Origin: a virus
Lineage: Duplodnaviria; Caudoviricetes
Length of the DNA: 64,000 nt
Direction: 5' to 3' (one strand)
Virus record (IMG/VR): IMGVR_UViG_3300031555_004942
Coordinates: 53,110-117,109 of that record
Shown: in pieces, positions 5,443-28,936 of the stretch
Layout of the letters: each line of letters begins with the position of its first letter
Position numbering within the stretch: position 1 is the stretch's first letter
Notes under the pieces: generated by a model
The model's database searches: none
Told to the model about the DNA's origin: nothing
Seen by the model: only the letters and a program-made list of their open reading frames with translations
Made by a program: the position numbers and the translations under genes

Positions 5443-5706
5443 ATGGAACTTTATAAGTTTATAAGCGAAACAGAGATTAAGAAGTATAAAGGTGGATTTG
5501 TTGTTGTAGATAATACAATATACACAAATCCCAAAGAAGAAATAATAAGGATGGCAGGATATAAAGAATTAATTGATACACCTATCCCTGAATATAATCC
5601 TGAAATAGAATATATTGTATTAACATATCAGGATGGTGAAAAAATTACTCCTTGTTATACTGTAAATCAAATAGAGTTCATGGAAGAATTAGAAGTAATA
5701 GAATAA
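5443..5706 (+). CDS. Small fibre-associated hypothetical protein (87 aa)
   Basis: AAGGAG RBS; NP..E....AGYKEL.....PEYNPE motif common downstream of phage fibre genes. Confidence 0.65.
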   Translation: MELYKFISETEIKKYKGGFVVVDNTIYTNPKEEIIRMAGYKELIDTPIPEYNPEIEYIVLTYQDGEKITPCYTVNQIEFMEELEVIE

Positions 5707-5782
5707 TAAAAACTGAATTTTATTGTATAATATAGCACAACATATAGTGTATGATTTTATTTTCATACACTATATATAGTTG
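5706..5782 (+). promoter_or_regulatory. Composite element copy 1: ATAAAA-N6-TTTTAT plus tandem NrdR-like boxes
   Basis: ATAAAA ACTGAA TTTTAT (5706-5723); GCACAACATATAGTGT (5735-5750); ACACTATATATAGTTG (5767-5782); box spacing 32 bp. Confidence 0.75.
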
Positions 5783-5821
5783 TGATTTTGAAATGTTTTA
5801 AAGGAGAAAGAGGTGAAAAAT

Positions 5822-7114
5822 ATGCCTAAAAAAAGTCAAAAAGTAGAAACAGTTGGAATAAATGAAGTAAAACGAAAGTTAGGACCAATGGGGAAAAAAA
5901 TAAAAGAATTTTATAGAAACCAAGATGATGTTATTGGGACATATTTTTCTCCACAATCAGAAAAAATAAAAGAAGATAGAAAAATATGTACTATGTGTAA
6001 TAAACCTTTACCTGCAGGTGATTTTTGGCAAAGTTTTTCATATATTAATTCTGCAAGAACAGATATTGATAGTAAGATGCATTTACCTGTATGTAAAGCA
6101 TGTTCTCAGAAGTTATTTGATTATTATTACGAAAAAGTACATCATAAATCCTATGTAAAAGCAATGGAACATGTATGTTGTGATTTGAATTTATATTGGG
6201 ATATAGATATATTCAATGCTTGTAAAGAAGTGTATGAGCATAACCAGAGAAAACTACATATATTGTCTGAGTATGTAGGTGCTTTAAGTAGAAGAAGTGC
6301 TAATTTTATCGGACAGACTTATTGGGATAGTCCTACAATAGTGAATAGAAATATAACTATTGTTCAAGGACAGAATCAAGATTTTGAAAAAAAACTCATT
6401 AATCCTGAGGATAATCCTGAATTATTAAAGGATGGATGGGATACCCCTTTAGATTGGGAAAGGGAAGATGCAGAAAATAGAAAAAAAATTATACGTGTAT
6501 ATAGATATGATCCGTTTGAATATGAAACGGACGAAGATAAAAAATCACTTTATAGGGATTTAGCAGCAATGTTAGATGATGCAATGGAAGATGATTTTGT
6601 TAAATCTAGAGGTGCTTTAGAAGTAGTTAGAGGTTTTAATAGAATAGAAAAATTAGGTAAAAAAATAGCAATATTAGAAAAAGAAGAAGCTGAGGCAAAT
6701 GTTATTCAAAGATATGTTGATATGAAAACTAAAGAACGTGCTTCCATTACAGCATATTGTAAAGATAATGGTTTTGCTGCAAGCTATGGAACAAAAAAAG
6801 CAAAAGGTGCAGGAACATTATCAGGAATTATGAATGAAATGAATGAAAAACAATATGAAAGAGGTATTTTAAATAGGTTTGATGTTAAAACAAGTGAAAG
6901 TATTCAACAAGCAGCTAATGCATCTGTAAGAGCTATTTTTGACCAATTAAATATTGGAGGTAATGAACAATATACTATTATTCAACAGCAAAGAGATTTG
7001 ATTTCAAGTTTGCAAAAAAAACTAGATAATGCTGAAGAAGATTTAAGAAAAGCTGAATGTAAAATAGTTGAATTAAAATTAAATAAACAATTGGAGGAAT
7101 CTGAAGATGATTAA
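5822..7114 (+). CDS. Zn-finger protein preceding TerL; probable terminase small subunit
   Basis: CTMC...CKAC zinc motif; C-terminal coiled coil; overlaps the terL start; ATG 5822 follows GAGGTG (ORF-track GTG start is 5813). Confidence 0.55.
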   Translation: MPKKSQKVETVGINEVKRKLGPMGKKIKEFYRNQDDVIGTYFSPQSEKIKEDRKICTMCNKPLPAGDFWQSFSYINSARTDIDSKMHLPVCKACSQKLFDYYYEKVHHKSYVKAMEHVCCDLNLYWDIDIFNACKEVYEHNQRKLHILSEYVGALSRRSANFIGQTYWDSPTIVNRNITIVQGQNQDFEKKLINPEDNPELLKDGWDTPLDWEREDAENRKKIIRVYRYDPFEYETDEDKKSLYRDLAAMLDDAMEDDFVKSRGALEVVRGFNRIEKLGKKIAILEKEEAEANVIQRYVDMKTKERASITAYCKDNGFAASYGTKKAKGAGTLSGIMNEMNEKQYERGILNRFDVKTSESIQQAANASVRAIFDQLNIGGNEQYTIIQQQRDLISSLQKKLDNAEEDLRKAECKIVELKLNKQLEESEDD

Positions 7115-9428
7115 TGTTATTTTTAATAAGACAGATTATGAGATTTCTCAAAGAAAAATTGATATGTTTGAAAAATATAATAAAGTTATTCAATGGGGAC
7201 GTAGAGAACCAGTTAAATTTATGGAAAAATTTTTTGGACTTCAGTTTACAGACCATCAGAGATATGTATTGTTATCTACATGGAATGCTACATACGCAGT
7301 ATGGCTTATGTCGAGAAATAGTGGCAAAGCTTGTGAACTTTCAACAAAAATATGGACACCAGATAATAATTTTTTGTGCATGAACGACATACATGTAGGA
7401 GATTATGTTTTAGATTATGAAGGCAATCCAACAAAGGTAATAGCTGAAAGTGAAATATTTATGAATGATACATATGATGTATATTTTTCTGATGGAGATA
7501 TTGTTACAGTAAATGATAATCATACATGGTGGATAGGGATAGATGATATTAATTCATTTATACTATGTGATACAAAAAATTTATATGAAATTCTAAAAGA
7601 TGAAAAACATATAATTTTTAATATAGATAAAAAAAGAATTATAGGTGTAAAAAGAGTTCCGACAGCTCCTACTAAATGTATTGAGGTTGATAATGAAACT
7701 CATACATATTTATGTGGAGAAAAAAAAACAGCTACTCATAATTCATATCTTTCAGCACCATATATGATGGCAAGAAGTATTTTAATACCAAATCATAAAA
7801 GTTACATAATGTGTCCGTCTGGTAATCAGGCACAACAAACATTTAGTAAAATAGAAGACTTAGCTAAAAATAAAATTGCTTCTGTACAAGGTGCAACATC
7901 TGTATTCATTAATGAATTAATGAAGGCTAACTCTGGAACTGATGGATTTGTTCATGATAAACATTCTCATTATTGTGAATTATTTAATGGTAGTTCAATT
8001 AGTACTTTGAATAGTATTGCAAAAAATGTTGTGGGTTTTCGTTCTCATCTTAATTTTTATGATGAGGCAGGAAAAGTCGAAAGAGATTTCTTTGATTTAA
8101 CAGAACCATTCTGTACTCAGGATAGAGACTTTATAACTGGTGCTAATTTTAATATAAAGTGTATGCCAAAACAAATGCCTAACCAAATGATTTATGCAAG
8201 TTCTGCAGAAGGTGTTGATAGTAGACTATATGATATTTATAAAGAGAGTGCTTTAAGAATGATTGGTGGAGATATGTCATATTTTTGTTGTGATATAACT
8301 TGTGAATTAAGTCTACATCCATATTTAGATGGTAAACCTTATAGACCATTGTTATCACAAGATGTAATTGATAATGCCTTAAAAATGAATGAATTTAGGG
8401 CAAATCGTGAATATTTCAATAAATTTGATTTATCTGGGGGACAAGATGCATTAGTAAAAAGAACAACTATTATAGCAAATAGTTATGCATATCATCCTAT
8501 CTATAGGAATGATACTAATGAACGTATCTTTTTAATTGCATATGACCCTGCTACAAAGATAGATAACAGTATGATTGGTATAGCAGAACTTATAGAGGAT
8601 GCTGAAAAAGGATTAATGTTAAAAATGGCTAATTTAATTAATTTAATAGAAATTTTGCCGAATGGTGACAAGAAAACTATTCAGAAACCAGAACAGGTAG
8701 AAATATTAAAATCTTTAATTTTAAAATATAATGGACAAGTTCCTGATTATGAAAATCTTAGTTCTTTAACAATAGATGCAGGTTCTGGAGGAGGAGGTTT
8801 TGATATTGCTCAATATCTACTTCGAGATTGGACAGGACCTGATGGAAGAAAACATATTGGTTTTATTGATTTAAATGATAAATATTTAAAATTAGAAAGA
8901 GATAAATTTCCAGGAGCTTCAGATAAATTAACCATGGCTAATTTTACAGGACAAAAAGTAGAAATGTATCAAGCTTGTCAAGATATGATAAACCAAGGAT
9001 TAGTAATGTTTCCAAAAAGTTTAAATTTAAAATTAGAAATGGAATTTGAAGAAGTTAAAGAAGATGGAACTGTTAATATTACTTGTGAAAGAATGAGTTC
9101 TGAAGAGGTAAAAACAATAGTGGAATTTGATATGATGAAAGAAGAACTTGTTGCTATGCAAAAAATTAAACAAGGAAATAATATAAAATTTGATTTATTG
9201 CCAAGTAAAAAAGCAGAATCTATGCATGATGACCGCAGTGACGTATGTGCTATGCTCTGTTGGCAATTATCAAAATTAAGAAAAAATGAATTATTAAATG
9301 TAGAAACAAAAACAGATGGATTTCAAAAATTATTTAATCATGGATTTAAAAAACAATCAACTCCATTTGATTCTCAAACAAATCCTTTTTTAAATGACAG
9401 TAAAAGAAATCCATTTTTAATGAGGTAG
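7107..9428 (+). CDS. terL: Terminase large subunit, intein-containing
   Basis: Adenine-binding Q motif (FTDHQ); Walker A SRNSGK/S split by the intein; Walker B FYDEAG; coupling motif YASSA; RNase H-like nuclease YDPA...IDAGSGGGG...HDDRSD. Confidence 0.93.
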   Translation: MINVIFNKTDYEISQRKIDMFEKYNKVIQWGRREPVKFMEKFFGLQFTDHQRYVLLSTWNATYAVWLMSRNSGKACELSTKIWTPDNNFLCMNDIHVGDYVLDYEGNPTKVIAESEIFMNDTYDVYFSDGDIVTVNDNHTWWIGIDDINSFILCDTKNLYEILKDEKHIIFNIDKKRIIGVKRVPTAPTKCIEVDNETHTYLCGEKKTATHNSYLSAPYMMARSILIPNHKSYIMCPSGNQAQQTFSKIEDLAKNKIASVQGATSVFINELMKANSGTDGFVHDKHSHYCELFNGSSISTLNSIAKNVVGFRSHLNFYDEAGKVERDFFDLTEPFCTQDRDFITGANFNIKCMPKQMPNQMIYASSAEGVDSRLYDIYKESALRMIGGDMSYFCCDITCELSLHPYLDGKPYRPLLSQDVIDNALKMNEFRANREYFNKFDLSGGQDALVKRTTIIANSYAYHPIYRNDTNERIFLIAYDPATKIDNSMIGIAELIEDAEKGLMLKMANLINLIEILPNGDKKTIQKPEQVEILKSLILKYNGQVPDYENLSSLTIDAGSGGGGFDIAQYLLRDWTGPDGRKHIGFIDLNDKYLKLERDKFPGASDKLTMANFTGQKVEMYQACQDMINQGLVMFPKSLNLKLEMEFEEVKEDGTVNITCERMSSEEVKTIVEFDMMKEELVAMQKIKQGNNIKFDLLPSKKAESMHDDRSDVCAMLCWQLSKLRKNELLNVETKTDGFQKLFNHGFKKQSTPFDSQTNPFLNDSKRNPFLMR
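7329..7742 (+). mobile_element. Class 3 mini-intein (138 aa, no homing endonuclease) in the TerL P-loop
   Basis: Starts A-C-ELSTKIWTP after GK; block B NDNHTW; block F PTKCIEVD; block G THN followed by Ser(+1); excision restores SRNSGKS. Confidence 0.9.
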
Positions 9429-9432
9429 TAAT

Positions 9433-9792
9433 ATGATATATAAAATTATAATGGAATTTAAGGATTTAGATATTTTGATTAATAAATTATCTAAAGACTT
9501 TAATATTTTATTTTATAACAATTGTTTATACATATGTTCAAAAAATTTTAAAAAAAAATCTTTAAAGACAATCAAGAGTATTTTAAAAACAGATAATGTT
9601 TTTTTAGTAGATATTAATGAAAGTAATTTGAAGAATGAAAGTGATTACATTCAAAGCTGGTGTAAAAATTATTTCATAGAAAAAGACATTAAAGAGTTTG
9701 AACAAAAAGAACAAGAATTATTAAAACAATATATGTTATGTTTAGATGATTGTGAAAAACAAATTCAAGAAATGATAAAGAAAGGAGGATAA
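9433..9792 (+). CDS. Hypothetical protein (119 aa)
   Basis: ORF between terL and portal with a GAGGT RBS. Confidence 0.7.
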   Translation: MIYKIIMEFKDLDILINKLSKDFNILFYNNCLYICSKNFKKKSLKTIKSILKTDNVFLVDINESNLKNESDYIQSWCKNYFIEKDIKEFEQKEQELLKQYMLCLDDCEKQIQEMIKKGG

Positions 9793-9795
9793 AAT

Positions 9796-11676
9796 ATGGA
9801 AAAGACAAAAGGTAGACCAACTATTGAAAAAGATACTACTAATGAAGAAAAAAAAGAAGTATTAATGGAGAAAATATCTGTTCAAGAACCATATATAAGA
9901 ATGTCTCAGATGTTTTCACAATATCAACAACAAGGACTTAATAGTAGTCAATTTTTAACAGCATTAGGTTCATCTTTTAAAAATAATCCATTTATACAAA
10001 ATTCTCGATTAAAAAGAATTAATTCTCCTATAACATCAACAAATAAAAGCGAATTAGATAAAGCGATTAAAATTCCTGAAAATAATGAAGATCTTTTTTG
10101 TTCTGAATCTCAAAGTTTGTATTTTCAGAATTATGTATATAGTAATTTATTAAAAATTAATCGTGAAACACCTCAATATTTTTATTATGCTATTCCTGTT
10201 GATGTATCATCTAAAGATTGTGTCAAAGATGATTTTAAAAAAGAAATGCATCTTGTGAATGAATTATTAGATAAACTTAACATTCGTAAAGTAGGTAAAG
10301 ATATTGCTATGGATATAAGTTTGGAAGGAAAAAGGTCTTATATTTTTAGACATAGTTGTTCAAAAAATAAAGGACAAGTTGATTTTGCTTTATTTCAAAA
10401 AATACCATCTCGTTGGATTAAATATACAAATATAGGAAGCACAACAGATTATGTAACATCTTTAGATTTTATGATGTTTTTACAACCAGGGGAATCATTG
10501 GATTTTTATCCACCATTCTTTACAGAAATTTGGAATGAATTAATTGAAAATGAAATTTTTGTAGATGATAAACAAGGAAATAAAACTTTAAATATAAATG
10601 CTATTAATAATAATCAAAGGAATGATATTTTAGAATATGCGAATGGTAGATACATGTATTGGGTACAATTACCACAAAATGAAGTATTTGAATTTGGTTC
10701 AGATAATAGCCACACATTAAGACTTCCTGAATATATGGGGTTATTTAGTGATTTAAGGGGATTAGATGATTATAAATGGCTTCAAAATCAATTATTATCT
10801 AGATCTGTAAATAGTGTTATGGTTGGTACAGTTCCACTTATAAAAGATCATAATCTTGCAGGAGGAGATCAAACAGCTATTTCTATGGATTCAATTATTG
10901 GTTTTAGTGATATGTTTACCAATGCTGTTAGTAGTAACATTATGCCATTCTTTGCTCCATTTACAGATTATAAATTATTATCTTTACCATCTCCTCCAGA
11001 TGCTAAAGAAATCAATAATACAGCATTAAAAAATTTAATTAACACGTCAGGTATGGGTGCATTGATTTCTACCACTGATAAACCTAGTATTATTAGTGTA
11101 AAAACAGCTCAAAAATTAGCAGAAGCTAAATCTGAGTATATAATGTTACAAATACAAGATTGTTTAAATTATATTGTTAATAATAAATTAGGATTAAAAT
11201 ATAAATTTAAAATTACTTTATGGGGTGGATTGTTTAATGCTGAAAATGATATTAAAATAATGAAAGAAATGGCAATTGCAGGATATACTGCTGTTATTCC
11301 TCGTTTAATGAGTGGGTTTAATTTAAATATGGAGGATTGTGTTTCTATTGGGAATTATTTAGAGTCTATAGATTTTTATAAACATTGTAAATCTATGGCT
11401 TCTTTAGGTAAAGAAGATGAAAAAATAGGAGAAACAAAAAAAGTAGGAAGAAAACCAGTTGGTAATGATTTAGAAAATGATAATACAGAAATTTCTATAT
11501 CTCAGGGAAATAACGTTTCTGATATAAAAGAATTTTCAGGTATTTCTCGTTGTTTAAAATGTGGAGAACCTGTTGAAAATGGAGAGTTTTTGTGTGATGA
11601 TTGTTTAGAAGAGGAATATGAAATAAGATTACAAGAAGTAATGTCTTTTATTAAACAAGATAATATACAAGGATAA
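9796..11676 (+). CDS. Portal protein with a C-terminal Zn-ribbon extension
   Basis: Position after terL; 626 aa; C-terminal GRKP...NDNT..S...G.N typical of this portal class, followed by CLKC-x11-CDDC; AAGGAGG RBS. Confidence 0.75.
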   Translation: MEKTKGRPTIEKDTTNEEKKEVLMEKISVQEPYIRMSQMFSQYQQQGLNSSQFLTALGSSFKNNPFIQNSRLKRINSPITSTNKSELDKAIKIPENNEDLFCSESQSLYFQNYVYSNLLKINRETPQYFYYAIPVDVSSKDCVKDDFKKEMHLVNELLDKLNIRKVGKDIAMDISLEGKRSYIFRHSCSKNKGQVDFALFQKIPSRWIKYTNIGSTTDYVTSLDFMMFLQPGESLDFYPPFFTEIWNELIENEIFVDDKQGNKTLNINAINNNQRNDILEYANGRYMYWVQLPQNEVFEFGSDNSHTLRLPEYMGLFSDLRGLDDYKWLQNQLLSRSVNSVMVGTVPLIKDHNLAGGDQTAISMDSIIGFSDMFTNAVSSNIMPFFAPFTDYKLLSLPSPPDAKEINNTALKNLINTSGMGALISTTDKPSIISVKTAQKLAEAKSEYIMLQIQDCLNYIVNNKLGLKYKFKITLWGGLFNAENDIKIMKEMAIAGYTAVIPRLMSGFNLNMEDCVSIGNYLESIDFYKHCKSMASLGKEDEKIGETKKVGRKPVGNDLENDNTEISISQGNNVSDIKEFSGISRCLKCGEPVENGEFLCDDCLEEEYEIRLQEVMSFIKQDNIQG

Positions 11677-11692
11677 AAAAAGGGGAATAAAA

Positions 11693-11851
11693 ATGAATAA
11701 AGGAAAAAAAGAAAAAGAAAAAATATGTAATCATAATCCTAAAGATGTAAAAACAACGTTAAAAAAAATAGAACGAAAAACTATGGTTTTTCCTGCTGTT
11801 GATGAGTATTGTTGTAAAACATGCCATGAGTTTTTTGTTTTTGAAAAATGA
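11693..11851 (+). CDS. Small Cys/His-rich protein (52 aa), absent from the ORF track
   Basis: AGGGG RBS; translation MNKGKKEKEKICNHNPK...YCCKTCHEFFVFEK*; CxH...CxxC. Confidence 0.6.
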   Translation: MNKGKKEKEKICNHNPKDVKTTLKKIERKTMVFPAVDEYCCKTCHEFFVFEK

Positions 11852-11918
11852 TATGATTATATGTTTCACTCTTTATGTTTTATAAAGGTTAAATACTTTT
11901 AGAAAGGAGTGAATATTT

Positions 11919-12551
11919 TTGAAAGAATTAATAGCAACATTAAATTTAGATTTTCGCAGTATAATTACAACAATTTTTGTAATAATGTCAGGAGTTGTTT
12001 TTGCTTATCAACTTATTGGAAAATTTTCAGAAATTTTAGGAAAACCATTTAAATGGTATACTAGTAGAAATAAAGATCATGAAGAGTTAAAAAATTTAGT
12101 TGGAGAATTAAAAACACATAAAGAAAACAATGATAAGGTAGAAGAAGTGTTTGTTAAATTTATGAATGAGATGAAAGCAGAAATGCAAAAATATAATGAT
12201 AATAGAATTCATGATCGTCAACAATCATTTGATATTCAGAGACAACTCACATCAACTATGGATAAAATGGCTGAATCTGCAGGAAAAAATAAAGTATTAA
12301 TTGATGCTTTATTAGCGGCACAGAAAGAAATGATGGCTGAAAAAATCAATGAGAAATATAAGAATTATATTGCTATGGATGGTATCCCAGAAGATGAATA
12401 TGATGAATTTGTTGCTCTACACGCTGCTTATAATGGGGTTGGAGGAAATCATCATGGAGATGCTAAGTATAATTATTGTATTAATAATTTAAAAGTTAAA
12501 CCAGTAGAAATTAAAGTAGTAACAAGGGAAATTAAGAAACAAGGTGAATAA
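11919..12551 (+). CDS. Holin-like membrane protein
   Basis: TTG start after AAGGAG; N-terminal TM helix; coiled coil; C-terminal 'LH.AY...GGN..G' motif seen in Firmicutes phage holin-like proteins. Confidence 0.55.
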   Translation: MKELIATLNLDFRSIITTIFVIMSGVVFAYQLIGKFSEILGKPFKWYTSRNKDHEELKNLVGELKTHKENNDKVEEVFVKFMNEMKAEMQKYNDNRIHDRQQSFDIQRQLTSTMDKMAESAGKNKVLIDALLAAQKEMMAEKINEKYKNYIAMDGIPEDEYDEFVALHAAYNGVGGNHHGDAKYNYCINNLKVKPVEIKVVTREIKKQGE

Positions 12552-12863
12552 ATGATATATTTTATCACAGATACAAGGAATATAAAAATAGGATATACAA
12601 AAGGAAAAATCGAAAAAAGATTACAACAATTACAAACTAGTTGTGCTGATAATTTGTATATTTTAGGATGGATTGATGGAAATATAAAAATGGAAAAACA
12701 ATTACATGTTAAATTCAATTCAAGTAAAACAAGATCGAATGGTGAGTGGTTTTATCCCACAGAAGATTTATTAGAATATATAAATTCTAATAATCAAAGA
12801 AATAATACATATGTAGATTTTGTAGATGGTAAATTAATGGCTTTATTAAAAATATCTACTTAA
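12552..12863 (+). CDS. GIY-YIG superfamily nuclease (T5orf172/MUG113 type)
   Basis: IYFI...IKIGYT...KRLQQLQTS...E..LH..F......GEWF. Confidence 0.85.
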   Translation: MIYFITDTRNIKIGYTKGKIEKRLQQLQTSCADNLYILGWIDGNIKMEKQLHVKFNSSKTRSNGEWFYPTEDLLEYINSNNQRNNTYVDFVDGKLMALLKIST

Positions 12864-12914
12864 ATCAATAATTTTTATTATTTTTTATATTACTGAGGGG
12901 AGGTGACAGAGGTA

Positions 12915-14834: not shown

Positions 14835-14847
14835 GGAGGAATAAAAA

Positions 14848-19569: not shown

Positions 19570-20222
19570 TGAGAATAAGTTCTGATGAAGTTAGTTTAGT
19601 AGCTAAACAAAAATTTAATAGATTTACTAATTTAGATTCTATTGAAGAAAGAATTATAAACTATTTAATAAAATCAGATTCAATATATGCAAATAGAATA
19701 TGGAAACTATTAAAATATGCAGACTCAAAAGCTTTATTGAATGATAATCTTACAAAAAAACAAAAAGCAGAATTAGTGGATAATGATTCTGAAACACAAA
19801 CAAAGAAACGAGTATTTAGATATCCATTTATAGAAGATGCTTTTACTGAACAATGTAGTATTTTAAGAGTATATATAGATAGTATTATTCCTATAGATCA
19901 TTTAAAAAGCATTGTAAATGTAGGTATGGATTTAATAACTCATAATAAGATTAATAATGTATATAATGATTCAGGAGATGAAATAGAAGCTCCTGAAAAT
20001 TATAATCCTACAGAAAATGAAATTGTTATAAAATCAAGAAAAAGTGTTTTTTTAAAAAATATTTTAGCTGAGTTTAATGGAGTAGATATAGAGGGAGTTG
20101 GTCAACTTCAATTTAATAGAGATTTATCTTCTTTTTCTCAAGCAAAACTAGGTTTATTTAACAATAGAGATTATACAGGATATAAAGTTATTTTTAGTTG
20201 TTTACAATCAGGAGTTGAATAA
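19569..20222 (+). CDS. Putative tail terminator/completion protein
   Basis: Two genes before the major tail gene; size 217 aa; GVGQLQF motif. Confidence 0.45.
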   Translation: MRISSDEVSLVAKQKFNRFTNLDSIEERIINYLIKSDSIYANRIWKLLKYADSKALLNDNLTKKQKAELVDNDSETQTKKRVFRYPFIEDAFTEQCSILRVYIDSIIPIDHLKSIVNVGMDLITHNKINNVYNDSGDEIEAPENYNPTENEIVIKSRKSVFLKNILAEFNGVDIEGVGQLQFNRDLSSFSQAKLGLFNNRDYTGYKVIFSCLQSGVE

Positions 20223-20224
20223 AA

Positions 20225-21175
20225 ATGGCTAAAAAAATTAAACGAGAAGAATTATTAAATTTAATAAAGTATTATGAACAGGCTTTTTTTACAAATGATT
20301 TGCCTATTCCTTTTAAATATAATTTAACGATATATCCCATTCTTGTAGAAAATTATTATAAATTTTATGCGAGTATAGGATGTTTTAAAATAAATAAAAA
20401 TGAAGATATAAAAGGTGTAGGTATGTCGAATTTAGATTATGTTCTTTATTTATCTGAACAAGAAGATGGTAAAAGATTTTTCTTTCAGTTAATCTCATTA
20501 TTAGAATTAATATTTCATATAAAAAATGGAATTATTTGTCCTGAGTGTGGAAAGGTAATTTCATATGAGGAAATAAATGAAAAAATTGATAAAATAAAAT
20601 TGATAGAAAATGAAAATGAACGTAATAATACAATGCAATTATATATTGAACAAATAGAATATTGCGATTGTAATAAAGATAATAAAATAAAAAGAGAGCC
20701 TGTTATACAGTATAGTCGTGAGAAAGGTAATAAATATATTTCTATTAATGGAATAAAAATAAATCCAGAAGAATATGATTTATTGCGTAATATTGTTTTA
20801 TATTATAATATTCCAGATTATGATGATGAATATATTGATCCTGAATTAAAAGCAGAATTAGAAGAAGTTGCAAGATTAAAAAATCCTAATAATGTGCAAC
20901 CTTCTTTAGAAAAACAAATGTCTTGTATTGTATCGGCAGGTGTGTCATATACTTATGAGACAATAAAACAATTATCTATTCGTAAAATGGTATTGTTGCT
21001 TCGAACAATTGATGCAAGATTGCATTATTTTGCTTATAGACAAGCAGAGGCTAGTGGTTTTGTATCTTTTAAAAATGAATTAACACATTGGATATATGGA
21101 GTAGATAAGAAAGATAAATTCTCGGATGTTATGACAATGGATGCATTAAGAGATAAATTAAAAGATGTAATTTAA
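20225..21175 (+). CDS. Hypothetical tail-module protein with a CxxC/CxC insertion
   Basis: Directly upstream of the major tail gene; CPEC...CDC; C-terminal HWI motif. Confidence 0.55.
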   Translation: MAKKIKREELLNLIKYYEQAFFTNDLPIPFKYNLTIYPILVENYYKFYASIGCFKINKNEDIKGVGMSNLDYVLYLSEQEDGKRFFFQLISLLELIFHIKNGIICPECGKVISYEEINEKIDKIKLIENENERNNTMQLYIEQIEYCDCNKDNKIKREPVIQYSREKGNKYISINGIKINPEEYDLLRNIVLYYNIPDYDDEYIDPELKAELEEVARLKNPNNVQPSLEKQMSCIVSAGVSYTYETIKQLSIRKMVLLLRTIDARLHYFAYRQAEASGFVSFKNELTHWIYGVDKKDKFSDVMTMDALRDKLKDVI

Positions 21176-21242
21176 TAAAAAAAATAGATAGAAATATCTA
21201 TTTAATATAAAAAATAATATAAAATTTAAGGAGGAAAAAATT

Positions 21243-22304
21243 ATGGTATTTTTAGCTGGTGTTGCAAATGCGGAAATTTTTAAAAATAATGATCTTTTTG
21301 CTACTGCAAAAACATTAATTGATAGTTCAATCACAATCGGAGTATCTGCAGAAGATATTCGTGCAGGTCAAGGTGCAAAATTGTATGGTAAGTATTTCCA
21401 CACAAGTACTTTTGATCTTAAAATGACAGATGCTATGTTTAAACTTGAGTACATAGCTGCAAACGTTGGTGCTGATTTAACTCTTGGTGGTGACGTATTC
21501 ACAGAAGAGGAGCATATAATTGAAGCAGGTGGAGCATTTGAACTTGCACATGCTGTTGTTCCTATGCAAGAAGGTGCATCTAGATTTATTTATTATAAGA
21601 AATCAGATGACAGTTTCTACAGAACTCTTAAGCTTAATGACGAAAATTATAAAGATGGTAAAGTAACAATTACAGGTATTGAAGCAGGTACATGGTGCGT
21701 TAAGTATTTATATACTAATGATTCTGCACGTAAGTTAGTTGTAAGTGCAAACTTTACACCTGATACACTTTCTGTATATCTTACAGCAAATCTTTATGCA
21801 GGTGATGATGCAAATCCTTCAACTGGTACAAAAATTGGTACAGTAACAATTAAAGTACCTCGTTTCTTACTTTCTGGTTCACAAGAACTTAGCATGTCTA
21901 TGACAGGTGCTTCAAATACAGCATTTGAAGGTTCTGCATTGGCTTCAAAAGGTAAGGGATGTGATAGTGATGGTGTTTATGCTGAAATTATCGAAGTTGT
22001 AACAGGTAGAACATATGCTGATTTAGTTGCTCTTGCTATTGATGGTGAGGCTGATGGTCTTTCTTTAGCAATTGGCGAATCAGAGGAACTTGTTGTATAT
22101 GGCAGATATGAAGACACAGCTCCTGCAATTGTTGATAATTCAAAAGTAAAATTTGAAGCAACTGGAGAGGCTGTAACTGTTGATACAAATGGTGTTATTA
22201 CAGCAGCTTCAGCAGGAACAGCTACTGTAACTGTTTCTATTAAAGATAGAGATGGTAAAGATGTTTCTTCAACAATTGAAGTAACAGTACCTGCTGCTGA
22301 ATAA
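21243..22304 (+). CDS. Major tail (tube) protein with a C-terminal Ig-like domain
   Basis: EDIRAGQG..LYG.YFH; C-terminal VTVDTNGVITAASAGTATVTV Ig (Big_2-like) motif; strong RBS; terminator shortly downstream. Confidence 0.8.
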   Translation: MVFLAGVANAEIFKNNDLFATAKTLIDSSITIGVSAEDIRAGQGAKLYGKYFHTSTFDLKMTDAMFKLEYIAANVGADLTLGGDVFTEEEHIIEAGGAFELAHAVVPMQEGASRFIYYKKSDDSFYRTLKLNDENYKDGKVTITGIEAGTWCVKYLYTNDSARKLVVSANFTPDTLSVYLTANLYAGDDANPSTGTKIGTVTIKVPRFLLSGSQELSMSMTGASNTAFEGSALASKGKGCDSDGVYAEIIEVVTGRTYADLVALAIDGEADGLSLAIGESEELVVYGRYEDTAPAIVDNSKVKFEATGEAVTVDTNGVITAASAGTATVTVSIKDRDGKDVSSTIEVTVPAAE

Positions 22305-22675
22305 TGAGTGGAAATCTTTGTCCTTATAGTAATAGGGTAGGGCGAGAATTAAAATGCACACTTGGCGAAAGTCAAGTGTGCAAATATGTTAGATATTGTA
22401 CTATTGATTCAAAATGGTGGAATTCTAATAATTTTACTTCTTGTGAAAGGAGGAAACAAGAAATGTCTAAGAATAAAAACAGAAATTATGAAAATTTTGA
22501 AAGAAAAAATGAAAATATTGTAATTGCTAAAGAACAAGAAATTGTAGCAACTGAAGATATTAAAGAGGATGTTTCAATTGAGGTTGAAGCTATAAAAGAG
22601 CCTAAGAAAGAAAAAGCTGTGAAAGTATCAATTCCTCAAGTGCCAAAAAGATCAAGAAGAAGGACTTTATATTAA
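22304..22675 (+). CDS. Small Cys-rich protein with a possible internal start at 22463
   Basis: CPY..C..C..C..C N-terminal half; AAAGGAGG before an in-frame ATG at 22463. Confidence 0.6.
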   Translation: MSGNLCPYSNRVGRELKCTLGESQVCKYVRYCTIDSKWWNSNNFTSCERRKQEMSKNKNRNYENFERKNENIVIAKEQEIVATEDIKEDVSIEVEAIKEPKKEKAVKVSIPQVPKRSRRRTLY

Positions 22676-22695
22676 TAAAAAATTTATCAAAAGGA

Positions 22696-22728
22696 AGATA
22701 AGCTACAAGAGTAGTTTATCTTTTTTTT
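22696..22728 (+). terminator. Rho-independent terminator
   Basis: AGATAAGCTAC-AAGA-GTAGTTTATCT followed by a T-tract. Confidence 0.8.
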
Positions 22729-22741
22729 GCATAAAAATGTA

Positions 22742-22818
22742 ATAAAATTATTTTTTTATCGTATATTTTACCACAATATATAGTATTACATATATGATGC
22801 CTATACAATATATTGTGT
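22742..22818 (+). promoter_or_regulatory. Composite element copy 2: ATAAAA-N6-TTTTAT plus tandem NrdR-like boxes
   Basis: ATAAAA TTATTT TTTTAT (22742-22759); CCACAATATATAGTAT (22771-22786); ATACAATATATTGTGT (22803-22818). Confidence 0.75.
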
Positions 22819-22856
22819 TTAAAAATTATTATAAAATATGATTGGCAGGTATTGTT

Positions 22857-24281
22857 ATGAGCAAAAAAAAAGAAAAAATAAAAATTAATTTTATAGGAGC
22901 TAACGCTGATCAGGTTACAGGTTCTTGTACTCATATTGTAATGAATAATAAACAAATTTTATTAGAATGTGGGTTAATGCAAGGAGGTAAAACTATATTA
23001 GAAGATTATAGAAATAATGTAAAAAAATTTAGTTTTAATGCCTCTCAGATTGATTATGTTTTTGTAGGGCATGCACATGCAGATCATTGTGCTATGATTC
23101 CTAGATTGATAAAAGAGGGATTTGAAGGTAAGATAATTGTTCCTAAAGGAAGTAGTTCAATAATTTATGAAATATGTAAAGATTGTGCTTTTATTATGTT
23201 TAAGGATTGTGAATCATTAAGAAAAAAATATAAAGATAAACAATTTTTACCTGCGTATACTGAAGAACATGTAAATTTAATGATGGACCATATATATGAA
23301 TATGAAATGGAAACTAATTATTGTTTAGACGATAATGTTTCTTTTACTTTTTACAATAGTCAACATATTGTATGTTCTGCTCAAATTATGCTTTGGTTAA
23401 CGCAAAACAATCATACAAAAAAAATTATATATACAAGTGATTTAGGTAATATTTCTGTAGAAAATAATTATGTTCAAGAAATTACAAAACTTCAAAAAGC
23501 AAATCTTTTGATTGGAGAAGCAACGTATTGTGAACATTCTAAACCACTTACACATAAACATAGAAAAAAAGATTTAGAAAAAATAAAATGTGTAATAGAC
23601 CAATGTGTAGAAAATAATTCGTCTTGTTTAATCCCAACTTTTTCTTTGCATAGAACACAAGAAATGATAACAGAAATATATAAAATATATAAAAACAATA
23701 ATGTAAATATTGATTTTATTATTGCTTCTCCTTTAGCAAATAAAATTTGTGATATTTTTTTACAGATTTTAAAAGGAGAACAATTAAAACTTTTTACAGA
23801 GGTTATGAACTGGAGTAAATTAAAAAGAGTAAGAGATTATGATAAAGTAAATGAGTTATTAAATGATAAAAAGCCACATGTATGGTTGGCTTCTTCAGGA
23901 TTTATGACTGCAGGATATTCTCGCAGTATTTGTTCTTATTTATTAGGTAATTCAAAAAATACAATTATTTTATCAGGATATGCTCCAGAGGGTTCTTTAG
24001 CTTATAAGATAAAAAATGGAACAACAAAAACGATTACTATAGATGATAAGGTTTGCAAAAATTTAGCAACTGCTGTAATTCTTAAAAGTTTTTCAAGTCA
24101 TATGCAATATTATGATTTATTAAAATATTATTCAGATAGTTTTGTTGAAAAAATTTGTATTGTTCATGCAGATAAAAAACATAAGATAGATTTTTGTAAA
24201 ACTTTACAAAGTGAAATAAATAATAAAAATAAAACGCAAAGAGTAGTATGTGTCACTAATGGTACATCTATTAATTTATAA
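22857..24281 (+). CDS. Metallo-beta-lactamase / beta-CASP ribonuclease (CPSF73/Ysh1-like)
   Basis: VTGSC; HAHADH; HIVCSA; YTSDLG; EATY; LIPTFSLHRTQE; ASSGFM..G; FSSH; IVH; ORF track gives an alternative TTG start at 22842. Confidence 0.9.
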   Translation: MSKKKEKIKINFIGANADQVTGSCTHIVMNNKQILLECGLMQGGKTILEDYRNNVKKFSFNASQIDYVFVGHAHADHCAMIPRLIKEGFEGKIIVPKGSSSIIYEICKDCAFIMFKDCESLRKKYKDKQFLPAYTEEHVNLMMDHIYEYEMETNYCLDDNVSFTFYNSQHIVCSAQIMLWLTQNNHTKKIIYTSDLGNISVENNYVQEITKLQKANLLIGEATYCEHSKPLTHKHRKKDLEKIKCVIDQCVENNSSCLIPTFSLHRTQEMITEIYKIYKNNNVNIDFIIASPLANKICDIFLQILKGEQLKLFTEVMNWSKLKRVRDYDKVNELLNDKKPHVWLASSGFMTAGYSRSICSYLLGNSKNTIILSGYAPEGSLAYKIKNGTTKTITIDDKVCKNLATAVILKSFSSHMQYYDLLKYYSDSFVEKICIVHADKKHKIDFCKTLQSEINNKNKTQRVVCVTNGTSINL

Positions 24282-24298
24282 TAAAGGAGAAAAACGAT

Positions 24299-24952
24299 AT
24301 GAAATATAATAAAGGTTTTGAAGACGTTATTACTTTTTTAACTCCTCAGGTGGAAGAGTTTGCAAATTTTAAAATCCCTTCTGTTGAATCATTAGAAGAA
24401 TGGAATGATTTTAAAAATAGAAAAATTTATCTTGATTTTGAAATAGGTGATTATTTAATTACAATTTCAAAACGTATTATTTCATGGAATAGCGAAGATA
24501 AAGATATTCCAAAAAATGAAAGAAAACCAATAACAATATATATTAATTCCCCTGGTGGAAGTTTACAATCATGTATGACATTTATAGATGTATTAAAAAT
24601 GTCAACAACTCCTATTAATTTAATTTGTATTAATGGAGCGTATTCCGCAGCAGGGATGATTTTTATGTGCAAAGGAGAAAACATTGTTAGATCTATTGTC
24701 CCACATGGAAAAGTTTTGATTCATCAAGGTAGTTTAGGTATGGGTCAGGTTCAAACACATCAATTTTTAGATTTAGCTTCAGATGTACAAAAAGATGAAA
24801 AAAAAGTAAAAGATTATATTTTAGAAAATACAAAAATTACATCTCGTATGTATGATAAAAAGAAGAAAGATGAATGGACTTTAAATGCTGAAGAATGTAT
24901 TCTATATGGAGTATGTGATAAAATAATTGAAGATATTTCAGAATTATTTTAA
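24299..24952 (+). CDS. clpP: ClpP-like serine protease
   Basis: YINSPGGS; AYSAA (catalytic Ser); LIHQ (His); D in KKDEW.LNAEE...YG.CD.I. Confidence 0.88.
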   Translation: MKYNKGFEDVITFLTPQVEEFANFKIPSVESLEEWNDFKNRKIYLDFEIGDYLITISKRIISWNSEDKDIPKNERKPITIYINSPGGSLQSCMTFIDVLKMSTTPINLICINGAYSAAGMIFMCKGENIVRSIVPHGKVLIHQGSLGMGQVQTHQFLDLASDVQKDEKKVKDYILENTKITSRMYDKKKKDEWTLNAEECILYGVCDKIIEDISELF

Positions 24953-24963
24953 AGGGAGATATA

Positions 24964-25230
24964 GTGATGAAAAATACTAATAGAGATTATAATCAATCTA
25001 AAAAAATAAATAATTTTAAAAAAAATAATTTTAATAATTATTATAAAGATGAAGATGAAGAAAGTCAAGTTTTTTATAAAAAAAAACAAACTAAAAAGAA
25101 ATCAGACATTGAATCTAATGAGTTTGTTTTACAGTGTTTAGAAAAAGAAAAAAACAATGAACGTAGAAAGTTCAAAGAAAAAGAAAAAAATAGAAGAAGT
25201 AAAAAAGATCGTATTTATGAAGATGATTAA
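24964..25230 (+). CDS. Small, highly charged Lys-rich hypothetical protein
   Basis: GGGAG RBS; low complexity. Confidence 0.55.
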   Translation: MMKNTNRDYNQSKKINNFKKNNFNNYYKDEDEESQVFYKKKQTKKKSDIESNEFVLQCLEKEKNNERRKFKEKEKNRRSKKDRIYEDD

Positions 25231-25247
25231 TTAAAGGAGGGTTTTAT

Positions 25248-25613
25248 ATGAGTACAATGAATTTAGTATTAGAATATATAACACAGTATGGAGCAATTGT
25301 AGGAATTATTATTCTTGTTGTTGTAGGATTCATATTAAAAATTCAGCAAATTGTTAATGGAAATCTTGTTGAGTGGCTTGTTGATAAAGTTGCTTATGCT
25401 GAAGCTTATTTAGGATCAGGTACAGGGCAGATGAAATTAAGATATGTGTATGATTTGTTTGTACAAAAAAGAACAATATTAGCTTCTTTAATTTCATTTG
25501 ATAAATTTTCAAAATTGGTTGATTTAGCTTTAGATAAATTTGAAACAATGCTTAAGAATAATAAAGCAATCAAAGAGTGGTTTGAAAAATTACAAGAAGA
25601 AAAAAATAAATAA
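25248..25613 (+). CDS. Holin-like protein (LL-H-type)
   Basis: N-terminal TM helix; AE..LGSGTG..KL..VYD.F motif. Confidence 0.7.
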   Translation: MSTMNLVLEYITQYGAIVGIIILVVVGFILKIQQIVNGNLVEWLVDKVAYAEAYLGSGTGQMKLRYVYDLFVQKRTILASLISFDKFSKLVDLALDKFETMLKNNKAIKEWFEKLQEEKNK

Positions 25614-25625
25614 TATATAGAGCAA

Positions 25626-25691
25626 TTTTATATTGCTCTTAAAAGTATATTATTTATTATAAAATAATGTGTTTTTAAGAACAATATAAAA
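25626..25691 (+). other. Long imperfect inverted repeat (about 30-bp stem) before recU
   Basis: TTTTATATTGCTCTTAAAAGTATATTATTT / AAATAATGTGTTTTTAAGAACAATATAAAA; most deviations are G-U compatible. Confidence 0.6.
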
Positions 25692-25709
25692 GATAAGGAG
25701 AATAAAATA

Positions 25710-26258
25710 ATGAATAAAACATCATTGGGAAAAAAATTTGAAAAAAATTTTGGAGATTCTGCGAAACAAGATGGTATTTTTACACATAGGTTAAAAGATA
25801 CTGATTTATCATATAATGGTAATTCTGTTTCAAGTTTTACTCCGTCAAATAAATGTGATTATTATTTTTTAGGTAATGTAAAAGATGGTAGAGGAACTTT
25901 ATTTGGTGTTGAATGTAAAAGTACTAAATATTCATCTATAGGAATTCAAACATCCCCAGAAGATCCAGAAAAAATGATAAAATATAAACAAATTCAAAGT
26001 TTGATTGAATTAAGTATGTATGAAGGTATAAAATCAGGTTTTGTATTAAATTTTAGAGATGATGATACAAATATGGAAGATACATATTATATTTCTATAG
26101 AAGATTTTTCTACGTTTTTAAATGAAACGCATAAAAAATCTATTAATAAAGCTGATTGTGAATTAAGAGGTCTATCTGTGGAATCAAAATTAAAAAGAAC
26201 AAACTATAAATATAATGTAAAAAAAATGTTAGAAGATATAATTAGAAAGGAGAGTTAA
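25710..26258 (+). CDS. recU: RecU-family Holliday junction resolvase
   Basis: GKKFE...CDY...VECKST...Q...L.......GFVLNF. Confidence 0.8.
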   Translation: MNKTSLGKKFEKNFGDSAKQDGIFTHRLKDTDLSYNGNSVSSFTPSNKCDYYFLGNVKDGRGTLFGVECKSTKYSSIGIQTSPEDPEKMIKYKQIQSLIELSMYEGIKSGFVLNFRDDDTNMEDTYYISIEDFSTFLNETHKKSINKADCELRGLSVESKLKRTNYKYNVKKMLEDIIRKES

Positions 26259-26259
26259 T

Positions 26260-27300
26260 ATGGCAAGAGAAACTTTTAAAAAACAGTTTACTACTCCTGA
26301 TATTATAAAACAGATTAATCCTAAAAATGTAAAATTAATGAATTTATATTTAAAAGATAAGAGTAGAAAATGTAGTGATGCTACAATGAAAGTGTATGCA
26401 TCTAATTTAAATATATTTTTTTGTTGGAATGTTATATATAATGATAATAAATATTATCCAGAAATTAAAAAAGTAGAATTAAGTGAATTTTTTGATTTTT
26501 TAGTTAATGAATTAAAAATACAAGGAAAAAGGTTTGCTCACTATCGTTCTGTTTTGAGTACCTTATCTGACATTGTAATAAAATATTATGATGATGATTA
26601 TCCTACTTTTAAAAATATTGTAAATACAATTATTGAACCCATTCCAAAAGATGCAGTAAGAAAAAAAACAATTTTAACAGATGAAGAAGTAGAACTTATT
26701 TTTGAAGTTTTGATTGCAAAGGATAGAATACAAGAAGCCTGTTGTTTTGCTCTTGCTGTATATTCTGGAATGAGAATTGCAGAGATTGAACAAATGAAAG
26801 TCGATATGATTGATAGAGAAAATAGTTTATCGTTTGGAGGAGTTTCTTTACAAACTACTGAAAAAATAAGAACAAAAGGATTTGGAAAACAAGGAAAGGT
26901 TATTTATAAACATATCATTAAAGATTTATTTTTACCTTATTTTGATAATTGGTTAGTAGAAAGAAATAGGATTATTGAAGAGTTAGGAATTGAAGACCAT
27001 GGATATCTTTTTATAAAAAGAAATGGTCAAAAAGCTACACAACATGTTATTCGTAATTGGGCAGATAAATGGAGTAAAATTGTAGGTAAAGATGTATATC
27101 TCCATTGTTTAAGACATAACTTAGTTACATATTTAACAAAATTAGGATTAGGTAGTGATTTTATTATTGCTTTTATGGGATGGTCCTCGGCTGATATGTA
27201 CAAAATCTATAATGACCTTGAGGATTCTGAACTTGATTGGAAAGATAGTAAAAAATTACAAGAAATTATCAATAAAAAATTATTAGAAGAAGATGAATGA
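26260..27300 (+). CDS. Tyrosine recombinase (XerC/D-like)
   Basis: N-terminal core-binding domain; catalytic R (SGMRIAE), K (TKG), HCLRH, MGWSS and Y (IYND). Confidence 0.9.
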   Translation: MARETFKKQFTTPDIIKQINPKNVKLMNLYLKDKSRKCSDATMKVYASNLNIFFCWNVIYNDNKYYPEIKKVELSEFFDFLVNELKIQGKRFAHYRSVLSTLSDIVIKYYDDDYPTFKNIVNTIIEPIPKDAVRKKTILTDEEVELIFEVLIAKDRIQEACCFALAVYSGMRIAEIEQMKVDMIDRENSLSFGGVSLQTTEKIRTKGFGKQGKVIYKHIIKDLFLPYFDNWLVERNRIIEELGIEDHGYLFIKRNGQKATQHVIRNWADKWSKIVGKDVYLHCLRHNLVTYLTKLGLGSDFIIAFMGWSSADMYKIYNDLEDSELDWKDSKKLQEIINKKLLEEDE

Positions 27301-27325
27301 TTGTAAGCTTATAGGAGGTGAATAT

Positions 27326-27532
27326 ATGTCTGTAAAAATAAAATTTAAAACAGGAGAAGGTATTCCTAATAAATTAGAGGTGGGAGAACCTGCTTTTGAT
27401 ACAAAATATAATATTGTATATATTGGTGATCAAAATGGAAATCCTATTTCTTTAAATTCTGTTAATACAGATAAAATTACTCAAGGTGATTTAATTCTAA
27501 TTTTAAATGGTGGTACTTCAGAAAATGAATAA
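27326..27532 (+). CDS. Small fibre-anchor-like protein (68 aa)
   Basis: ATG 27326 after AGGAGGTG; LEVGEPAFDT....YIGD motif similar to the fibre N-terminus; ends in LNGG. Confidence 0.6.
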   Translation: MSVKIKFKTGEGIPNKLEVGEPAFDTKYNIVYIGDQNGNPISLNSVNTDKITQGDLILILNGGTSENE

Positions 27533-27597
27533 ATATTTACACATAAGATAATATCGAAAAAGATTTTTAAATAGTATTTATTTAAGGAGTGAAATAT

Positions 27598-28473
27598 ATG
27601 AAAAATATAGAAAAATTAATTAACTATGCTTTAACATGGGTTGGATATTGTGAGAAAAAATCAGCACAACATCTTGATGATTTTTCAAAGAATGCAGGAA
27701 GTGGTAATTATACTTGTTTTGCAAGAGATTATAAAAAACATTCTGGTATTGATGTTCAGGGGCAACCATGGTGTGATGTTTATGTAGATGAATGTTTTAT
27801 AAATGTGTTTGGTGTAGAAAAAGCAAAAGACCTTTTACATGGATTTTCTGCTTATACTCCAACTTCTGCAGATAATTTTAAAAAACATAAAGAATGGTAC
27901 AATAAACCTCAAATTGGAGATGTGATTTTTTTTAAAAATTCAACTCGTATTTGTCATACAGGAATTGTTTATAATGTAACAAAAGATAGAGTGTATACAA
28001 CAGAAGGGAACACATCAGGAGGAACAGAACTTGAGGCTAATGGAGGATGTGTTGCTAAGAAAAATTATCCATTATCTTATAGTAAGATTGCAGGATATGG
28101 TAGACCTAATTATGAGAAATATGAACAAAAAGAAGTAGTTGTAGAGGAATATATTGATAATGAACCTATAATTTGGGAGCTTCAGAATAGAAAAATTATT
28201 ACTAATGTGAATTTATGGAGAAAGAAAATTCAAGAAGATCAGAACATATATTGGCTTTGCAGAAAAGCAATTCAATACATAAGAACTAAACAAACTACAG
28301 AATATGCCGATGTTGTATATACAAACAAAGATGAGATTTTGTGGGAGTTAAAAAATAGAAAAATAATAACGGATGTTGATTTGTGGAGAAAATATATGAT
28401 TGAGGATCAAAATGTTTATTGGCTTTGTCATAATCTTGTACACTATATGAGGACTCAAAAGAAGGAAGTGTGA
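27598..28473 (+). CDS. Endolysin: CHAP domain plus two C-terminal repeats
   Basis: GYCEK; QPWCD (Cys); GDVIFF; HTGIV (His); EGNT; IAGYGRP; ATG 27598 after AAGGAG. Confidence 0.88.
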   Translation: MKNIEKLINYALTWVGYCEKKSAQHLDDFSKNAGSGNYTCFARDYKKHSGIDVQGQPWCDVYVDECFINVFGVEKAKDLLHGFSAYTPTSADNFKKHKEWYNKPQIGDVIFFKNSTRICHTGIVYNVTKDRVYTTEGNTSGGTELEANGGCVAKKNYPLSYSKIAGYGRPNYEKYEQKEVVVEEYIDNEPIIWELQNRKIITNVNLWRKKIQEDQNIYWLCRKAIQYIRTKQTTEYADVVYTNKDEILWELKNRKIITDVDLWRKYMIEDQNVYWLCHNLVHYMRTQKKEV

Positions 28474-28476
28474 GTT

Positions 28477-28863
28477 ATGTTTTATCTTGATAAATCAGAG
28501 TATAATAAAAAGTTAAAAAAAATAAAAAAGCAAAATGAAAGTTTTTTGAGAAAACAAGAATTAGCAGAGATGCGATTAAAGACCAAAAAAGAAAAAAGCA
28601 AAAAAACAACTACTAAAATAGTGATGTTTTATTTATTTACTGTTTTAAATTTAGTTCTTATTTATTCTTTGATTGCAATGTGGCATTTTGAAGATTTGAC
28701 TCATTTAGGGGTTTTAATTACTGATATTATTGGACAAATTATTGTTTTTTTAGTATATTGTTTAAAATCAGCTAAAGAGAATTCTCAGGGTGGAATTGTT
28801 TATGAACAGGCGATACATAATAATTTAAATTATGAAGATGATAGTTTATTAAAAGATAAATAA
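28477..28863 (+). CDS. Two-TM membrane protein, holin-like
   Basis: Basic N-terminus; two hydrophobic helices; Y..KSAKEN..GGI motif; adjacent to the endolysin. Confidence 0.6.
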   Translation: MFYLDKSEYNKKLKKIKKQNESFLRKQELAEMRLKTKKEKSKKTTTKIVMFYLFTVLNLVLIYSLIAMWHFEDLTHLGVLITDIIGQIIVFLVYCLKSAKENSQGGIVYEQAIHNNLNYEDDSLLKDK

Positions 28864-28936
28864 AATTTCAATTTTATTGTATATTTAACCACAATATATT
28901 GTGGTTTTGTTATTATATGTATACAATATATTGTAT
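28860..28936 (+). promoter_or_regulatory. Composite element copy 3: ATAAAA-N6-TTTTAT plus tandem NrdR-like boxes
   Basis: ATAAAA TTTCAA TTTTAT (28860-28877); CCACAATATATTGTGG (28889-28904); ATACAATATATTGTAT (28921-28936). Confidence 0.75.

Follow-up and report, generated by a model that had tools for sequence, protein, structure and literature searches.

Why should tandem boxes for NrdR, which is regarded as a repressor specific to ribonucleotide reductase (RNR) genes, stand in front of the packaging, virion and lysis genes of a phage? The question is raised by IMGVR_UViG_3300031555_004942, a 117,109-bp IMG/VR contig from an uncultured gut phage (27% G+C; CheckV completeness ∼67%). Sequencing runs listed for its DNA come from animal faeces and from bovine or sheep gut, and no RNA run was listed. 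The stretch analyzed here, called the window, is the final 64 kb of this record, and positions refer to the window unless marked as genome positions. An original prediction, made from the window, had described three late-region copies, at 5706, 22742 and 28860, of an intergenic element that consists of the dyad ATAAAA-N6-TTTTAT followed by two NrdR-type boxes. On re-examination the coordinates and geometry of these copies proved exact and all three sites are real, but the total was too low: the record holds four. In our preferred reading, to which we give a probability of roughly 55%, late units of this SPbeta-like phage are headed by a three-part element that joins a predicted operator for host NrdR to a phage-specific dyad, and that would serve as a replication-coupled late switch.

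Four copies of the element head late gene blocks

Copy number was established in two ways. An NrdR consensus scan of the whole record gave four copies, the additional one (site 0) lying outside the window, and an nhmmer profile of the element found exactly four full-length copies, with E values of 1e-10 to 1e-17. At sites 1–3, box 1 starts 29 bp after the start of the dyad and box 2 starts 32 bp after the start of box 1, with yGTATA directly 3' of the dyad; coordinates are collected in Table 1. All sites are intergenic, and the distance from the end of box 2 to the start codon is 28–40 nt. Site 0 starts 200 bp past an HU-like gene, and at site 1 the left arm of the dyad overlaps the stop codon of open reading frame (ORF) 5443-5706. 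Minus-strand genes occupy ∼13–45 kb of the genome and all genes past 45 kb are on the plus strand; when the whole record was scanned, no element site was found in the early minus-strand region or 5' of the polymerase genes.

The block headed by site 0 contains a glycosyltransferase, a 437-amino-acid (aa) protein and an Mtd_N/CBM tail-fibre-like protein. Site 1 is followed by a Cys-rich 430-aa protein (ATG at 5822), the large terminase (7107-9428), the portal (9796-11676) and head genes. Site 2 leads a beta-CASP RNase J-like gene (22857-24281), ClpP (24299-24952), a RecU-like gene, an integrase-family gene and a CHAP lysin, while site 3 precedes two small genes (28964-29569 and 29611-30210) and then a 7175-aa ORF (30215-51742). 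This bears out the earlier placement of the boxes before late blocks for terminase and head, for RNase, ClpP and lysis, and for the genes ahead of the giant ORF. A strong intrinsic terminator closes the head/tail block and ends ∼12 nt 5' of the site 2 dyad, so a new transcription unit must begin at site 2. The same terminator was missed by the consensus terminator scan.

Table 1. Coordinates of the four element copies and of associated features (window positions unless marked genome)
Feature	Position	Strand	Remarks
Site 0	genome 50743-50817		2366-2292 bp ahead of window position 1; box 1 at +28 from dyad start, box 2 at +31 from box 1
Site 1 dyad ATAAAA-ACTGAA-TTTTAT	5706..5723	+	arms identical in all copies, loop unconserved
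Site 1 linker TGTATAATATA	5724..5734	+	-10-like TATAAT at 5726-5731
Site 1 NrdR box 1 GCACAACATATAGTGT	5735..5750	.	14/16 to consensus, critical positions 6/6
Site 1 NrdR box 2 ACACTATATATAGTTG	5767..5782	.	after 16-bp spacer
Site 2 dyad ATAAAA-TTATTT-TTTTAT	22742..22759	+	
Site 2 NrdR box 1 CCACAATATATAGTAT	22771..22786	.	critical positions 6/6
Site 2 NrdR box 2 ATACAATATATTGTGT	22803..22818	.	
Site 3 dyad ATAAAA-TTTCAA-TTTTAT	28860..28877	+	overlaps stop codon of ORF 28477-28863
Site 3 NrdR box 1 CCACAATATATTGTGG	28889..28904	.	critical positions 6/6
Site 3 NrdR box 2 ATACAATATATTGTAT	28921..28936	.	
Strong intrinsic terminator	22685..22730	+	-21.8 kcal/mol, z -8.5, then run of 8 U
Downstream part of site 0 block	1..5437	+	includes 1045-aa Mtd_N/CBM tail-fibre-like protein at 693-3830

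Box quality and background expectation

Boxes were scored against the 16-position NrdR consensus acaCwAtATaTwGtgt, in which C4, A6, A8, T9, T11 and G13 are the highly conserved positions according to mutagenesis and a large bioinformatic survey (PMC13584703). The preferred spacer between NrdR boxes is 15–16 bp, with 14–17 bp tolerated (PMC12051234). All eight boxes, among them the six that had been said to fit this consensus, score 14–15 of 16 and match every one of the six critical positions; no other 16-mer in the 117-kb record reaches 14. Their spacers, 16 bp at sites 1–3 and 15 bp at site 0, fall within the NrdR requirement. At the level of sequence, the boxes have every feature that defines an NrdR operator.

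Such boxes might be AT-rich, low-complexity palindromes in a duplicated promoter cassette, without any specific reader. The low G+C content of the genome is in keeping with this, and so is the number of single core boxes, which is at background (43 observed versus 36.6 ± 6.3 in 200 dinucleotide shuffles); the four copies are moreover paralogous, hence not four independent events. The pairs tell a different story. Four pairs spaced 31–32 bp apart were observed against 0.015 expected (shuffle maximum 1), so the comparison with shuffled DNA that had been named as a possible refutation came out far above background. The exact dyad is also in excess in the record, with 10 observed and 0.62 expected. 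Identity among the four copies is 1.00 in the dyad arms and 0.79 and 0.80 in the boxes, and falls from 0.66 in the linker to 0.39 in the spacer and 0.33 in the loop, where ∼0.30 is random identity at the composition of the record. That arms and boxes were held while loop and spacer drifted to near-random suggests selection on the modules, and argues against boxes that nothing reads. We strongly disfavor that explanation and give it a very slim chance; its standing is lowered further by the recurrence described below.

Two explanations at the RNA level were rejected. The W5 and W12 positions of the boxes lack covariation, which favors a DNA site over an RNA hairpin. The dyad was likewise discarded as an intrinsic terminator or RNA hairpin, being too weak: folding energies of the four dyads are just -1.1 to -2.3 kcal/mol, and every pair is A-U.

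Recurrence of boxes and dyad in other phages

Searching IMG/VR with two strict boxes matched at least 109 contigs. Among the matches listed, genes beside the box pairs are mostly not RNR genes, which were found at three loci; the neighbors include phrog_19305 (9 cases), PcfJ-like genes (8), head maturation protease (5), nicotinamide phosphoribosyltransferase (5) and the anti-repressor Ant (4). In the five phages with a head protease neighbor, the pair lies 5' of that gene. Complete phages of 45–47 kb, which have no YonO-type polymerase, carry a box pair 5' of terS-terL-portal. These small phages with the pair beside their terminase genes are unrelated to the 117-kb phage, and several phage lineages seem to have reached NrdR boxes on late genes independently.

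The dyad recurs at its fixed distance. When 96 unique tandem sites were chosen irrespective of their flanks, 28 of them (about a quarter) had a dyad, with at most two mismatches, exactly 28–29 bp before the box start, and dyad counts at every other offset from 12 to 59 were 0 or 1. A sequence-blind dyad test returned the same 28–29-bp peak, with a further peak at 33 bp due to a third phased box. Searches for the dyad together with box 1 matched at least 74 viral contigs and at least 120 metagenome contigs. Among the matches listed, a 6/6 box 2 was present at +30 to +33 in 88 of 99 unique instances with flanks, though box 2 was not required by the search; both the breadth of the geometry and this unrequired second box count against palindromes without a reader. 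Variants of the dyad stay symmetric (ATGAAA..TTTCAT, AGGAAA..TTTCTT, TTAAAA..TTTTAA). The geometry of the element is thus not private to the 117-kb phage, and this generality is the new point.

By crude ORF calls, the dyad of the other phages showed no clean polarity relative to the nearest gene: 34 cases were downstream only, 22 divergent only and 17 both. The dyad-plus-box composite was not found in 401 Clostridia genomes, a search of modest power, since such genomes seldom have exact tandem sites (81 genomes had 3). Within that power, the idea that the dyad belongs to bacterial nrd promoters was dropped.

Two further settings of the boxes were noted. In a group of 140–170-kb phages (L029, L074, L081, L094, L109 and others) the dyad-plus-two-box element lies directly 5' of a transfer RNA gene, and the dyad loop CTGGCA complements TGCCAG just past box 2, the resulting long-range inverted repeat bracketing the operator. 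In the 216-kb relative L165 (G004:14622-14663) a tandem box pair lies 5' of a 153-aa gene that has an NAD-dependent DNA ligase as its downstream neighbor, a target that is not RNR but is replication-linked.

Candidate readers of the boxes

A search for a phage nrdR or ATP-cone gene had been named as a check on the original prediction. Neither an ATP-cone nor a Zn_ribbon_NrdR, NrdD or RNR large subunit occurs in the ∼67% complete record, which makes host NrdR the likely reader. Across 30 further phage contigs with the element, ATP-cones occur solely in open frames of 296–1036 aa, mostly RNR-sized, and no NrdR-sized ATP-cone frame of ∼150 aa was present. A phage-encoded NrdR was accordingly dropped as a candidate for the record and for these 30 contigs.

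As a positive control, the same tandem pattern was recovered 5' of NrdD and of an RNR large subunit in Clostridia, Lachnospiraceae and related genomes. It was recovered also 5' of the nrdD operon in the cultured YonO-type Enterocloster phage PMBT24. Three of the five cultured phage records scanned have a box pair, namely PMBT24, CB473P1 and c-st; the pairs of PMBT24 and CB473P1 are near-identical, and that of c-st adjoins a guanylate-kinase-like gene. Distant prophage relatives were found in Clostridia, Lachnospiraceae, Tissierellia and Paenibacillus genomes. Those of these genomes that were searched carry tandem box pairs, and the adjacent gene, where checked, is often RNR. In one Clostridia-class genome (G084) a repeat that carries NrdR-like box pairs occurs nine times, its flanks being near-identical (..GATTAATACC.AAAAAGTATATTAGTTGAAC..); this repeat may be a mobile or repeated element, not nine nrd operators.

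NrdR binds DNA solely as a tetramer loaded with adenosine triphosphate (ATP) and deoxyadenosine triphosphate (dATP) (PMC9110341). In lytic infection of Streptococcus pneumoniae, the host NrdR regulon is strongly derepressed (PMC6755750), which we count in favor of the late switch. The latter observation, from another system, also suits a different role for the sites, that of a decoy: four operators on a replicating genome would soak up host NrdR, derepress host RNR and supply deoxynucleoside triphosphates (dNTPs), control of late genes being secondary. The lack of an RNR gene in the record and the eight high-quality boxes per genome point the same way. Decoys need no fixed place, however, yet every pair heads a late block at a fixed distance from a second signal, and 16 of 30 other box-pair phages do carry RNR genes. 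We consider the decoy role improbable; it would be compatible with the late switch.

The dyad and the YonO-type polymerase

The phage encodes a 969-aa single-chain RNA polymerase (RNAP) of the YonO/QDE-1 type at genome 46208-49117 (Pfam RdRP). Its best cultured match is in Bacillus phage BUCT082 (41%), with further matches in c-st, Enterocloster phages and SPbeta. On its 3' side follow a 318-aa protein, the HU-like gene (50198-50542) and then site 0. The order of yonO, downstream protein and HU gene is common to BUCT082, and in SPbeta yonO is directly followed by the HU gene yonN. Site 0, after yonO- and yonN-like genes, therefore has the position of the YonO-dependent late promoter of SPbeta. 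That late promoter depends on YonO, and the sequence of a YonO promoter has never been defined (PMC5467207); our search of the literature on the YonO promoter or SPBRE found nothing useful.

No NrdR-type pair or ATAAAA-N6-TTTTAT dyad was found in the regions of SPbeta and BUCT082 examined. These two phages share a dyad ACTGATAT-N5-ATATCAGT (L172 7340-7365; L161 around 7450), which lies early in the 1.7 kb of non-coding DNA that separates the HU gene from yonK; the YonO-dependent late transcript reportedly starts there.

A search for relative genomes by terminase protein alone found none. The closest relative examined, G001, is syntenic, at 45–75% protein identity. It has one full copy of the element elsewhere in its genome (nhmmer E 4e-8), and the counterpart of the site 0 position bears the dyad alone, without boxes. 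In 7 of 13 further phages of the YonO type, too, a lone dyad lies at most 5 kb downstream of the polymerase gene; dyad and boxes can thus be separated as modules. Of 30 dyad-plus-box contigs, 19 encode a YonO-type RNAP, and so do 11 of the 13 tandem-box contigs of at least 100 kb that lack an exact dyad. The small complete box-bearing phages have no such polymerase, so the boxes would work independently of YonO. The dyad, by its distribution, could be linked to the YonO transcription system.

These data bear on a reading in which all three parts together form the late promoter for the phage YonO-type RNAP or an associated factor; a phage protein would then recognize the boxes, which would resemble NrdR sites by mimicry or coincidence. 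It would account for the location of site 0 exactly at the SPbeta promoter position, for the frequency of YonO-type RNAP among dyad-plus-box and large tandem-box contigs, for the failure to find the dyad with box 1 in 401 Clostridia genomes, and for the mostly non-RNR genes beside phage tandem boxes. We nonetheless think it unlikely. The boxes match the universal NrdR consensus at its six critical positions and keep the 15–16-bp spacer, the same boxes stand 5' of true RNR genes in bacteria and in PMBT24, and complete small phages without the polymerase have box pairs 5' of terminase genes. In addition, the record encodes no NrdR-type zinc ribbon, and the boxless dyad of G001, at the place equivalent to the YonO promoter, again separates the modules.

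Another reading retains host NrdR. The three-part element would be the promoter-operator unit of YonO-family single-chain RNAPs, with the dyad and its symmetric variants as promoter determinant or as dock for an initiation factor, and host NrdR would gate the phage polymerase according to dATP/ATP state. We offer this tentatively, as a rather doubtful proposal. If it were true, a viral RNAP would be under the control of a host metabolic repressor throughout a large gut-phage family.

Promoter signals beside the boxes

The suggestion that the conserved upstream part of the element is a late promoter held for one component: the dyad is conserved, but the TGTATAAT-like '-10' is not, and it has no -35 partner. 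The -10-like hexamer of the element is TATAAT or TATATT. No convincing -35/-10 pair 16–18 bp apart was found in the element, and a consensus promoter scan does not call it, its hits being at shuffle level. The TGTATAAT '-10' is replaced by TAGGTC in G001 and is also unconserved across 129 other instances. Since the linker is unconserved among other phages, TGTATAAT is no general feature, and a pattern demanding this phage's own '-10' had no match in IMG/VR.

In many Clostridia genomes the common layout has a -35 TTGACA overlapping box 1 at its left edge, with a -10 like TATAAT between the two boxes. At sites 2 and 3 (TTTACC/TTAACC + ACAAT) the likeness to that -35 is weak. Six more exact dyads occur without boxes, at genome 65, 1309, 29566 and 45282 and at window 52131 and 62378. 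The first of these lies 2 nt 5' of a ribosome-binding site, and the last lies 5' of a G+C-rich terminator hairpin.

A predicted replication-coupled late switch

The switch that we favor would work as follows. Host NrdR, as the tetramer loaded with ATP and dATP, would occupy the boxes just 5' of the ribosome-binding sites and hold the genes for virion, packaging and lysis silent. Replication of the phage would lower dATP, or would multiply the four operators per genome beyond the NrdR supply, or both. NrdR would then depart and transcription of all four blocks would set in at once. The sites may also be an extra lock in a lysogen. The dyad, 11–12 bp 5' of box 1, would be a signal of its own, specific to phages and set at a fixed distance; whatever starts late transcription, either a phage-directed polymerase or a factor, probably docks there. 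We infer in this scheme that NrdR binds and represses, that nucleotides or titration act as the trigger, and what the dyad does.

Several points weigh against this switch. Control of RNR genes, the trait that defines NrdR operators biologically, is lacking, the downstream genes being those for virion, packaging and lysis. That the host has an NrdR is assumed from the near-universality of this protein, and with the record ∼67% complete an nrdR gene could sit off-contig. A sigma-70/sigma-A promoter in the element was dropped on the scan results above. Relatives at 30–56% protein identity showed no boxes at the corresponding late junctions, and the wiring is thus labile in evolution. Finally, should the YonO-type polymerase transcribe the late units, NrdR might fail to block it.

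The literature searched yielded no account of late phage genes under NrdR operators, and none that mentions the dyad. If phages do use the operator on late promoters, the host dNTP sensor becomes a virion timer. This would be a simple, portable coupling of assembly to genome replication; it would widen the concept of the NrdR regulon and help to explain late-gene scheduling in large gut phages without an obvious late activator. Mutations in nrdR, or drugs that perturb dNTPs, are predicted to shift the timing of the phage burst. The phage-only dyad is in addition a concrete candidate for the promoter signal, so far undefined, that YonO-type polymerases use.

The protein encoded downstream of site 1

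The 430-aa protein (5822-7114) has invariant Cys pairs C56/C59 and C91/C94, plus C119, and matched neither Pfam nor PHROG. Its homologues, about 40 in number, always lie just 5' of a large terminase, and the nearest relatives have 70–90% identity. The protein may be a zinc-binding analogue of the small terminase.

Comparison with known systems

The closest parallels to the boxes are bacterial NrdR operators, such as those of Streptomyces coelicolor nrdRJ and nrdAB, Escherichia coli nrdHIEF, nrdDG and nrdAB, and Listeria monocytogenes nrdDG (PMC9110341, PMC12051234, PMC13584703). In both, two partially palindromic 16-bp boxes with six critical positions are separated by a 15–16-bp spacer, about three helical turns center to center, and the site lies immediately 5' of the downstream genes. 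Unlike the bacterial operators, those of the phage face virion, packaging and lysis genes instead of RNR or nrdR, number four per 117 kb, and have the phage-only dyad 11–12 bp upstream. The bacterial layout, with -35 TTGACA over box 1 and -10 in the spacer, is at best weakly present in the phage.

NrdR boxes also occur at phage RNR genes, in the nrdD operon of PMBT24 and at the three IMG/VR loci, where they are presumably read by host NrdR. They resemble the element in box type and spacing and in belonging to the YonO-type phage family. The target in PMBT24 is RNR, whereas here the targets are late morphogenesis units, in a record without RNR.

With the YonO-dependent promoter of SPbeta (PMC5467207), the likeness is that site 0 follows yonO-type RNAP and yonN-type HU genes and heads late genes. 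Both SPbeta and the 117-kb phage encode a single-chain two-barrel RNAP. SPbeta has one long late operon, whereas there are four entry points here.

Late transcription of phage T4 runs through the sliding clamp, and LexA boxes occur on prophage genes. As in these switches, the predicted NrdR switch would tie late or lytic genes to a host or replication signal and not to a phage activator alone. It differs from them in its proposed sensor, which would be the dATP/ATP-sensing NrdR of the host.

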